Origin: Methanomicrobiales archaeon
GTDB lineage: Archaea > Halobacteriota > Methanomicrobia > Methanomicrobiales > Methanospirillaceae
Length of the DNA stretch: 64,000 bases
Direction: 5' to 3'
NCBI GenBank assembly: GCA_037137755.1
Contig: JBAXJR010000001.1
Span: forward strand, 64,001-128,000
Numbering within the stretch: the stretch's first letter is position 1; each line of letters starts with the position of its first letter. The notes beneath the pieces are model-generated. The model made no database searches, was not told where the DNA came from, and saw nothing but the letters and a program-made list of their open reading frames with translations. This document shows positions 3,344 to 46,420 of this stretch, in pieces. Made by a program: the position numbers and the translations under genes.

Positions 3344-6300
3344 TTGAAGGAAGTAACCAGCAGTTATAATGCCCACGAGATCGAGGAATCTGTCCAGCAG
3401 TTGTGGCATGATGAGGATACCTTTTTAAAAGTTCAGGCGCTCCACGCAGGCGACCCGCCGTTTTTCTTTGTCGATGGTCCGCCGTATACCACCGGTCATA
3501 TCCATCTCGGCACTGCGTGGAACAAGATCTTAAAAGACAGCCTGCTCCGCTACCACCGGATGTGCGGGAGGCACGTGATCGCCAGGGCGGGGTATGATAT
3601 GCATGGGCTCCCGATCGAGGTCAGGGTAGAGCAGCAACTTGGTTTCTCTTCCAAGAAAGATATCGAAACATTCGGGATTGAGAAATTTATCGACCATTGT
3701 CGCGATTTTGCTGAGGTAAATAAGGACGTGATGAGCGGCCAGTTTAAAAAATTAGGGATCTGGCTGGACTTTGATAACCCGTACCAGACGATCCAGCCTG
3801 AATATATCGAAGCTGCATGGTGGACAATCCAGAGGGCTTCTGAACGTGGGATGCTTGAACGGGGGTTCCGCGTGGTGAACTGGTGCCCCCGGTGTGCGAC
3901 AGCAATCGCAGATGCGGAAGTCGAATACTGGGAGGAGACCGACCCTTCAATCTTCGTAAAATTCCCGCTGACGGGCAAATCCGGGGAATCCCTCGTGATA
4001 TGGACCACGACCCCGTGGACACTCCCCGCCAACGTCGCTGTAGCGGTCAACCCCGGTCTCTTCTACGCCCGTGTAAAGGCAGTGAAGGGTGAAACGGAAG
4101 AAATACTTTGGATTGCCTCGGAACTGGTGGAACCCGTCCTTAAGAAAGGCAAGTACCAGGACTATACTATCCTCGAAGAAAAGAAGGGCAAAGACCTGGT
4201 CGGTATGACCTACGACTCCCCGCTCGCAGAGCAGGTCCCCCTCCAGAAAGAGGTGATGCACCGGGTTGTCGTGGCGGACTTTGTTGCCAAAGAGAACACC
4301 GGGTTCGTACATATCGCCCCCGGCCACGGTTGGGACGACTACCTGCTCGGCCAGAAGGAGGGGCTTGCTATCATCTGCCCCGTTGATGCTACCGGGCACT
4401 TTACCAAGGAGGGCGGTGCGTTTGAATGCATGTTTGTCAAGGACGCAGATGAGGTAGTCCTTAAGGAACTAGGGGATTACCTCCTCGCAAAAGGCAGGGT
4501 TACCCACCGCTACGGCCACTGCTGGAGGTGCAAGACCCCGATCATCTTCCGTGCCACGTCGCAATGGTTCTTAAAGGCATCAGCAATGAAGGAACGGATG
4601 CTCGAGGAAGTCGCCATCGTAAAATGGTACCCCGAATGGGCGGGAAGTGCCCGTTTCTACGACTGGATTAAGGAGGCCCGTGACTGGTGTATCTCGCGGC
4701 AGCGGTACTGGGGTATCCCGATACCGATATGGGAATGCACGAAATGTGGCCATATCAGGGTCTTTGGTACGATAGCGGAGCTCGAGGGTGCAAGCGGGAC
4801 TCCTTTACCCGACCCTCACCGTCCGCATGTGGACAAGGTGACGGTGCCGTGCAGTTGTGGCGGGACGATGCGCCGCGTGGAAGATATCTTTGATGTCTGG
4901 TTTGATTCCGCCGTTGCGTCATGGGCGACCCTCAGGTACCCGGGCAACAAAGAAGCGTTTGACCAGCTGTGGCCCGCTGATTTCATCGCCGAAGGCCAGG
5001 ACCAGACGCGTGGCTGGTTCTACTCGCAACTTGGCGCGAGCACGATTGCGTTCGACTGTTCACCGTATAAGAGCGTCCTCATGCATGGTTTTGCACTTGA
5101 TGCGGAAGGTCGTAAAATGAGTAAAAGTCTCGGTAACGTGGTCACTCCTGAAGAAATTGTTGCGGCACAGGGTGTGGACGTTTTGAGGTTGTATGTCCTT
5201 TCCTCAAGTGCACCGTGGGACGACCTGAAATTCAACTGGGACGGTATCAAGACCGTAAACAGGACGATGAACATATTCTGGAATGTTTACCGGTTCCCTT
5301 TACCCTACATGATCCTCGATCACTGGCAGCCCGCTAACAATGGGGGGCACTGGGATGACGCCTATGTGAAAGGACATATCACCCGGATGCCAGACGAGGA
5401 CCGCTGGATTATTTCCCGTGTCAACAGCCTTGCACAACAGATGAACGAGGCGATCGGTGAATGCCAGCTCCACAAGGTCACCCGTGGACTGATCTCTTTC
5501 ATCCTTGACGACCTATCACGGTGGTACGTGCAGCTGGTCAGGCCAAGGCTCTGGCTCGAAGAAGAATCAGAAGTGAAAAAGTTTGCCTACGAGACGATGT
5601 ACTATGTAATGCGGCAGCTCGTCACCCTCCTTGCACCATTTACCCCGCATATCACTGAGGTAATGTATAACAATATCCGGCTCCCGGCTGACCCTGTCAG
5701 TGTCCATATGCTCCCATGGTTCACGGGTGATCGAAGCCTTATCGACACAGGGATCGAATCCCGGATGGGCATTGTGCAGTCATTTGATGAAGCACAGGCA
5801 AATGCCCGGCAGTCAGGAAAAAGGAAGCTCCGCTGGCCGGTGTCTGAATGTGTTATCTCTACGACATCACCGGATATCAAGGCCGCTATAGAGCAGTTAA
5901 ACGGTCTCTGTTGTGACCGTGCGAATGCAAAGTGTGTCAGGGTTGTCGAAGGGACCTATGACCGGATCTCATGGAATGCCGAACCGGTCATGAAGGCTCT
6001 GGGCCCGGGTTTTGGCAGGGATGCCCCGAAGGTGAAGGAATTAATCCTCGCCGCTGACGGGAACAAGGTCCGGGAAACCACGCTTGCCGGTAAGATGTAT
6101 ACCCTCATCTCCGGGGATGACCATTTTGATATCGGGAGCGAACATGTTACCTTTGTCGAAGGCCTTCCCGGCTCGGTTTTTTCTGCACCGATGCAGGATG
6201 CCACTGTATATGTCGATACAGCGCTCACCCCGGAACTCGAGGCTGAAGGGAATGCGAGAGAGGTAATCCGCCGTATCCAGGAGATGCGTCGCCAGCTTGA

Positions 6301-39413: not shown

Positions 39414-39574
39414 TGGGGTCGGTGAGATTTGAACTCACGATCGACGGGTCTCTCCGACATGCGTCAGTGCTCCAACGGATCATCACCATTCAGAAGACCC
39501 ATTGTTCATCATTCGCACAGAAGACGCGAAAGACCGCTGGAGCCCGTCGCCATTCCGGACTAGGCCACGACCCC
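39414..39574 (-). tRNA. tRNA-Trp(CCA) with an 87-nt intron at position 37/38 (39450-39536)
   Basis: Reverse complement GGGGTCGTGGCCTAGTCCGG..ACGGGCTCCAG | intron | ACCCGT..GTTCAAATC..CGACCCCA; CTCC/GGAG central BHB helix. Confidence 0.95.
39450..39536 (-). ncRNA. Box C/D guide sRNA in the tRNA-Trp intron
   Basis: ATGATGA..CTGA..GTGATGA..CTGA boxes; guides TGGGTCT and TTGGAGC are complementary to the exon junction and anticodon regions (established Cm34/39 2'-O-methylation system). Confidence 0.88.
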
Positions 39575-46053: not shown

Positions 46054-46175
46054 CGCGGTAAGAACCGTTTCCTGCGTGCCGCAGCATACTGGCAGGGATT
46101 GAGACTGTTCCAATGGCCAATACCCAAGGTATGAAACAATTCTTTTAACTGATGGCAACAAAACAGTGATAGAGC

Positions 46176-46253
46176 GGGCCGAAAGGTCCGGGGTAGATCG
46201 CTACCCTGGCATGGTGCAAACCTAAACAGCCCTGTTTCATCCCATCATGGTAG
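46176..46253 (+). pseudogene. Decayed, truncated intron-containing tRNA-Ala(GGC)
   Basis: D stem GGTC/GATC, anticodon stem CTACC/GGTAG with CT-GGC-A, 36-nt BHB-forming intron at 37/38; positions 8 and 14 are non-canonical; no T arm or acceptor 3' strand. Confidence 0.7.
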
Positions 46254-46272
46254 AAGATTTTTTGCTATCGTT

Positions 46273-46344
46273 GGGCTGGTGGTAAAGTGGTATTACGCGC
46301 CCTTGGCATGGGCGAGGCCGCGGGTTCAATTCCCGCCCAGTCCA
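46273..46344 (+). tRNA. tRNA-Ala(GGC), intronless
   Basis: Acceptor GGGCTGG/CCAGTCC with G3:U70, anticodon arm CGCCC-TTGGCAT-GGGCG, T loop TTCAATT. Confidence 0.95.
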
Positions 46345-46420
46345 TTCTTTTTCCTTAAATTTTCAGTAGTTTGGGCATTATTTTTATAGGGTCATATGCA
46401 TAGGGTATGACTGAACAATC

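Follow-up and report, generated by a model that had tools for sequence, protein, structure and literature searches.

Split (trans-spliced) tRNA genes are known from Nanoarchaeum and Caldivirga, and canonical archaeal BHB introns lie between tRNA positions 37 and 38. In the account of integration borders given in PMC9897764, element integration is well known to leave partial tRNA genes next to complete ones as a by-product; PYG1 of Pyrococcus yayanosii, for example, lies between a partial and a complete tRNA-Gln. In Caldiarchaeum subterraneum, a 5′ fragment of tRNA-Thr(GGU) was described that lies 1.8 kb ahead of an intact tRNA-Thr of different structure, and recombination at the tRNA was proposed as the cause of this layout (Sugahara et al. 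2012, PMC3293823).

The locus described here lies in a window of 64,000 nt, a single stretch of one contig of a Methanomicrobiales archaeon, and consists of a tRNA-Ala(GGC) fragment followed after 57 nt by a complete tRNA-Ala(GGC) gene. Like the integration-border fragments as presented in PMC9897764, the fragment adjoins a complete gene with the same anticodon, and the breakpoints lie within the region from the anticodon loop to the 3′ side, a typical attachment site; in addition, a 3′-half copy follows the complete gene in most relatives and, independently, on contig L116. Unlike those borders as described there, the locus has only 57 nt, in place of an element of 9–23 kb, separating fragment and gene, and neither an integrase nor element DNA is found there; the fragment is a different allele and not a direct repeat of the intact gene; and it is situated between the promoter and the working gene and has been kept across three genera. 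The likeness to Caldiarchaeum, as far as the description in PMC3293823 reaches, is that the displaced 5′ fragment keeps the original upstream region and that an intact gene with the same anticodon and a different 5′ part follows. In that account, however, the recombinase-bearing insertion is still present and the variation occurs within one population, whereas the event here is old and the intervening DNA amounts to tens of nucleotides. Unlike the fragment described for Caldiarchaeum, the one found here also appears to be part of a transcription unit now.

The relic resembles one half of a split tRNA in being a free-standing 5′ half with its own promoter, and differs from it in that no matching 3′ half was found elsewhere in the 90.6%-complete genome and an intact gene with the same anticodon is present. 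As with a canonical BHB intron, an extra 36 nt fit exactly between positions 37 and 38, with a BHB-like fold in this genome only; unlike genes with such introns, the relic has no T arm or acceptor 3′ strand, its central helix contains a mismatch, the arrangement is unconserved and the orthologues are intronless. In the literature that was searched, neither this locus nor a relic tRNA half acting as leader to its own replacement is described, which is not proof of absence. Considering all the data, we regard it as probable that 46176–46257 is what remains of the original tRNA-Ala(GGC) of this lineage, that the gene was replaced in situ, and that the new tRNA is co-transcribed through the relic. 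The direction of the replacement, its mechanism and the co-transcription are what we infer from features seen directly, namely the homology, the layout common to three genera, the conservation of the promoter and the absence of a conserved intron or structure.

The tRNA-Ala(GGC) locus and its relic

The initial annotation had read the stretch as the ghost of an intron-containing tRNA-Ala(GGC) leading into an intact intronless gene, and inspection of the sequence found all the sequence elements listed there in place, among them the tRNA-like 5′ part at 46176–46211. All features of the locus are on the forward strand. The ancestral tRNA-Ala(GGC) promoter (46133–46157) comprises a purine-rich BRE-like stretch and a TTTTAA box at 46143–46148. 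It is followed by a short leader, TAGAGC (46170–46175), which is near-invariant in the relic-locus alignment and in the per-site counts; judging by the distance from the box to the gene, it may represent the transcription start region of the ancestral gene. The 5′ part of the relic (46176–46216) corresponds by homology to positions 1–41 of the ancestral tRNA-Ala(GGC), including the acceptor 5′ strand, the D arm, the anticodon stem 5′ strand and the anticodon loop with GGC. Then come a filler with no tRNA similarity (46217–46247) and the TGGTAGAAGA piece (46248–46257), which begins with T-GGTAG (46248–46253). This piece can be either resumed tRNA positions 38–47 or a copy of the usual leader motif. 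At its place, G008 has TGGTAGAGGC, which agrees with ancestral positions 38–47 at 10 of 10 nucleotides; the assignment is ambiguous because a near-identical TGGTAGAGC leader precedes several Methanoregula-type genes.

A linker of 19 nt separates T-GGTAG from the intact tRNA. A T6 run between the relic and the tRNA (46258–46263) is present in this genome and absent in the other 14 with the relic; such a run could act as an archaeal terminator. The intact intronless tRNA-Ala(GGC) of the type called new here occupies 46273–46344, as the initial annotation had it (ARAGORN; Rfam, 65.2 bits; covariance model R1, 88.3 bits). Its D stem is GTAA/TTAC, G3:U70 is kept, and its 28:42 pair shows covariation between genomes (G-C, A-U or U-A). 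A T-rich terminator-like tail (46345–46355) with T5 at 46348–46352 closes the unit. A gene of the QRPTase/NAPRTase family is located upstream, and a DUF47 gene and a PHO4-type phosphate transporter gene are located downstream. Neighbouring gene types of this locus also occur at the locus of G014; there (L162, G014:C1:299500-307500), no QRPTase/NAPRTase-family gene precedes the tRNA locus and two copies of the DUF47 gene enclose a single PHO4 gene. In genome G005 (loci L016 and L134), the DUF47 gene has a frameshift with 14 in-frame stops after residue ~37 and the IleRS gene has two in-frame TGA codons; these are probably assembly errors, not biology.

The comparisons indicate that the tRNA ancestry of 46176–46215 is real homology, more than chance. 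This stretch shares 36 of 40 positions with the tRNA-Ala(GGC) that relatives have at the locus (E value of 2.5e-7 by BLAST against the whole 2.64-Mb genome). The next-best matches are the 18-nt D arms of the tRNA-Ala(TGC) and tRNA-Ala(CGC) of the genome. Gene conversion from these shared 18 nt is not indicated, there being no D-arm-specific slowing per site. The general Rfam tRNA model, at E ≤ 10, gave no match on the relic either in context or in the truncated stretch 46168–46216, whereas R1, a covariance model built from 10 distinct ancestral-type tRNA-Ala(GGC) genes, gave 30.6 bits (E values of 3.2e-6 for the window, searched with filters off, and 1.3e-4 for the genome). The derivation from tRNA-Ala(GGC) put forward in the initial annotation is borne out by the identity level and by the lineage-specific model, and the general model does not recover it. 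The stretch has the properties of a tRNA gene fragment, one part being significantly similar to a bona fide tRNA gene and the remainder of that gene missing; the tRNA similarity stops at position 41. Further copies of the relic were not found in this genome. A search for a separate matching 3′ half by BLAST and R1 returned only intact tRNAs (in this 90.6%-complete genome, with 150 of 3291 candidates scored by R1).

Across Methanomicrobiales, tRNA-Ala(GGC) occupies this locus, and its commonest form, termed ancestral here, is the one matched by the relic. At diagnostic positions 5, 7, 16, 29 and 41, the relic has the ancestral states and the intact gene has the Methanoregula states; therefore, the relic is not a recent copy of the adjoining gene. 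Of the two, the live gene has diverged much further from the ancestor than the dead copy has. In an alignment read by eye, the relic of G011 has one difference in the first 32 nt, against about 12 for the new type over its first 31 nt. For each tRNA-Ala(GGC) found (104 rows, with some genomes represented twice), the preceding 200 nt were aligned with the ancestral tRNA. The local alignment score was 34–60 in 14 of the 16 new-type genomes and did not exceed 21 in any of the 74 other rows. The new-type genomes outside this pattern are G009, in which the relic is alignable and heavily decayed, and G017, in which the new-type tRNA has no relic and the promoter stands directly before the gene.

One layout is common to 15 genomes of three genera (g1, g3 and g4), namely 13 genomes of the genus to which the window belongs and G014 and G015 from two other genera. 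The shared order is the promoter, the short leader, ancestral positions 1–41, the filler, a TGGTAG(A)GGC-like piece, a linker of 10–19 nt and the new-type tRNA. In 10 of the 15, a decayed copy of ancestral positions ~32–72 is also found after the intact gene, 3 to ~60 nt downstream and before the T-rich tail. This copy is missing in the present genome and in G006, and G014 has instead a full chimeric pseudo-tRNA 145 nt downstream of tRNA-Ala(GGC). The chimera (L028 796-866, G014:C1:304495-304565), which ARAGORN calls tRNA-Thr(GGT), joins the 5′ half of an ancestral-type tRNA-Ala to the 3′ half of a new-type one, and has a mutated anticodon, mismatched acceptor pairs and its own promoter-like block. 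On L116, an unrelated Methanomicrobiaceae contig, an independent copy of tRNA-Ala(GGC) positions 31–72 lies downstream of an intact gene, about 69–111 nt after the tRNA (it begins at 4937), with a score of 59 against a chance range of 10–21. Breakage in the anticodon-loop region therefore recurs in Methanomicrobiales. A co-occurring relative from a lake-water DNA run (X5) keeps 46133–46157 and 46273–46325, and 103 different letters replace the 115 between them; in this relative, the relic region is seen to diverge much faster than its flanks.

The filler was compared with several possible sources. Its alignment to R1 had suggested a decayed 3′ half, and this candidate was dropped after a direct test against tRNA positions 42–72 found no similarity in any of the 15 genomes. 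Against the upstream regions of 37 Methanoregula-type and G017 loci, all five filler queries remained within the shuffled range. Against nine Methanolinea-type promoter/leaders, the score was reached by only 3–4 of 300 shuffles, uncorrected, for G004, G010 and G007; the other nine queries were unremarkable, with 60 of 300 shuffles for the present genome. The resemblance of the filler to a Methanolinea-type promoter/leader lacking the T-rich box is thus suggestive in three close genomes only. G008 has a filler shorter by 18 nt. Conservation within the filler is highest, though moderate, in a TGT(A/T)TCA block located 30–40 nt before the tRNA.

Intron and switch readings

In the initial annotation, the 36 nt at 46212–46247, directly before T-GGTAG, were taken for an intron; the first nucleotides of this piece overlap the TGGT of the relic. 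The comparison with relatives speaks against an intron. ARAGORN, run with its intron option, found no intron in tRNA-Ala(GGC) among the 104 rows, and removal of the piece does not yield a complete cloverleaf, the T arm and the acceptor 3′ strand being absent. An imperfect BHB at 37/38 can indeed be drawn in this genome, with a 5-bp stem, two 3-nt bulges, a 4-bp inner helix and a 4-bp central helix of which three pairs form, C32 being opposite U. However, this motif does not extend beyond the one genome. The scanner used found strictly the introns of all three real intron-containing tRNAs of this genome that served as a control (Trp, Met and one more). At the homologous place, it found no strict BHB in the 15 genomes and, with one mismatch allowed, a single one, that of the present genome. 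One-mismatch BHB-like matches were found elsewhere in 12 of the 15 100-nt sequences.

Covariation was evaluated in the alignment of the 15 genomes. For the tRNA plus BHB structure, 68.5% of cells are paired versus 68.7% in shuffled columns; in the central helix, 44% of cells are paired, and none of the covariation measures differs from that of the shuffles. The two alternative hairpins noted in the initial annotation are present in this genome, but they likewise do not covary (79.5% paired versus 78.8% shuffled). The RNAalifold consensus fold of the leader has only -4.1 kcal/mol, and the fold of 46170–46272 is not unusual (z = -1.3). Neither the conserved structure nor the compensatory changes of a structured cis-regulatory leader were found among these genomes.

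A leader switch was also proposed in the initial annotation, in which the splicing endonuclease would cut the BHB of the relic in competition with the two hairpins, thereby controlling tRNA-Ala maturation or releasing a small RNA. Apart from the motif drawn at 37/38, this idea can draw on the presence in the genome of one endonuclease gene with two catalytic-domain repeats in one frame. Enzymes of this two-repeat (homodimer-type) class are, however, said not to cut non-canonical substrates in the treatment given in PMC5829648; in addition, none of the other 14 genomes shows the motif at the corresponding place when one mismatch is tolerated, matches of this kind occur at other places in 12 of the 15 sequences, and both folds are no better than shuffles. 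A functioning switch is therefore very improbable. The best reading of these comparisons is that the stretch is an evolutionary relic and would be neither a working intron-containing tRNA nor an RNA switch.

Several tRNA predictions with introns were noted in passing. The tRNA-Trp(CCA) gene of the window (39414–39574, reverse strand), one of the positive controls, passes the strict BHB scan, and its 87-nt intron contains a C/D-box sRNA (Rfam sR3, 65 bits, 39462–39516). A C/D-box sRNA in the tRNA-Trp intron is a known euryarchaeal arrangement. At G000:C12:56550-56655 (reverse strand), ARAGORN reports a tRNA-Asp(GTC) with a 21-nt intron, and a normal tRNA-Asp(GTC) lies 19 nt later; the isotype call looks unreliable because the BHB scan places a 36-nt intron there. 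The ARAGORN tRNAs with 443–550-nt introns at G000:C4:79873-80507 and L106 2954-3492 are inside coding sequence and are evident false positives.

Probable replacement of the gene and origin of the new allele

The tRNA-Ala(GGC) genes at this locus form a series consisting of the ancestral type, two Methanoregula types and the new type; the last is the second Methanoregula type with a different D stem. On the IleRS tree of 33 genomes, the relic-bearing genera group with Methanolinea-like genera that have the ancestral type (support 82), and G017 pairs with a Methanoregula-type genome (support 99), away from the relic-bearers. A constraint uniting 14 new-type genomes in one clade was rejected (delta lnL 90, p-AU 0.0008), and one uniting 13 relic-bearers was not (p 0.50); these results come from a single gene with backbone supports of 82–93, and the AU test was chosen after the tree had been seen. 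The backbone of the tree of the NAPRT-like neighbour gene was without resolution.

Under the preferred reading, the original gene would have been replaced in place, by a lateral or a paralogous allele, in the common ancestor of the three genera. It would have been reduced to its first 41 positions, followed by unrelated filler and a short TGGTAG piece, and a second allele, of Methanoregula type with the D stem further altered, would have taken over its function from 46273. Most likely, foreign or paralogous DNA recombined with the locus at the conserved anticodon-loop/3′ region and thereby brought in the new allele. The initial annotation had offered, as one option, an isoacceptor gene replacement caught part-way, and the comparison of the 15 genomes essentially agrees with it. 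No integrase or mobile-element genes were found around the locus in the window or in G014; an old element that has since been deleted could conceivably have been located there.

The same layout could also have arisen with no lateral transfer, from an old tandem array of tRNA-Ala(GGC) genes in which one copy drifted, its neighbours decayed and deletions fused the units. G014, which keeps two promoter-plus-5′-half units flanking the new gene, fits such a history, as do the resemblance of the filler to a Methanolinea-type promoter/leader in the three close genomes and the lack of mobile-element genes nearby. Against such a history, the non-functional relic resembles the ancestral sequence far more than the functional gene does, the states of the new type are common to Methanoregula-type genes of another branch, and an upstream fragment occurs in none of the 74 other rows. 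We consider the array unlikely on balance.

Transcription of the new tRNA

A promoter block with AACAATTCTTTTAAC lies ~25–26 nt before the working gene in Methanoregula-type loci, in Methanolinea-type loci and in G017. In the 15 relic-bearers, this block precedes the relic, and there is no copy of it before the new gene. Evolutionary rates at the locus were counted as Fitch steps per site on the IleRS topology for 11 genomes. The 168 four-fold sites gave 3.38 steps/site and the upstream spacer 3.58; the promoter gave 0.71, the relic 1.54, the filler 2.11, the linker 2.24 and the intact tRNA 0.08 steps/site. Pairwise identities agree with these step counts. The promoter is the most conserved non-tRNA stretch, and by this measure the old promoter is clearly under strong selection. 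The ratio of the relic to the four-fold sites is 0.46 (bootstrap 0.34–0.56), so that the relic leader changes roughly half as fast as neutral sites, and it has no conserved fold.

The tRNA is probably read through the relic because the promoter is selected, the new gene has no copy of it, and only the new tRNA appears to be important downstream. Most likely, the new tRNA would be transcribed from the old promoter at 46133–46157 through the relic, and RNase P would then remove the relic as an unusually long (~100-nt) 5′ leader. In the RNA library X20, which contains a relative, a 151-nt contig spans 46191–46341 from the relic to the tRNA with eight differences and two gaps, and the T6 run is broken in this relative. 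The contig gives a weak hint of a relic–tRNA transcript. A different contig in X20 continues from the tRNA into the gene that follows, and DNA carry-over is therefore possible. Another run, X13, covered only the 3′ part of the tRNA and the next gene. These RNA runs are assembled contigs, from which starts, ends and strand are not readable.

The relic might also be dead, with the tRNA transcribed from a weak internal promoter in the TGTTTCAT block and the transcripts from the old promoter ending at T6 as a useless ~90-nt RNA. The T6 run itself agrees with this, as does the fact that TGT(A/T)TCA is the best-kept part of the filler; the block also lies at -30 to -40, within the range of the A/T boxes before other tRNAs of this genome. 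The old promoter would then be useless, however, and yet it has 0.71 steps/site against 3.4–3.6 for the four-fold sites and the upstream spacer. In addition, the distance from the block to the tRNA varies by 8–10 nt between genomes and the T6 run is found in only 1 of the 15. As an A/T box, the block is poor: the sequence upstream of the tRNA itself scores 6 of 8, in the lower quarter of the 42 tRNAs of the genome, 31 of which score 7–8, although this score is crude, discriminates poorly and, when low, does not exclude a promoter. We therefore find an internal promoter doubtful. Still less likely is that the ~100-nt relic leader is a selected, sequence-constrained RNA, either a released small RNA resembling a 5′ tRNA half or a cis element tuning the expression or processing of the only tRNA-Ala(GGC). 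On this reading, the leader would have persisted as long as the three genera have existed, with no conserved fold.

Read as a replacement in situ, the locus illustrates clearly how, in nature, one allele of an essential single-copy tRNA gene can give way to another at the same site. In most relatives, remnants of the old gene persist on either side of the new one, which has apparently taken over the old promoter. Fragments of this kind are missed by the general tRNA model and are found by a lineage-specific one. The finding bears on models that tie tRNA disruption, tRNA fragments and introns to recombination at the anticodon loop. Should the long relic leader turn out to be both transcribed and under selection, it would represent one of the rare instances in which a tRNA pseudogene has found new use within the precursor of another tRNA.
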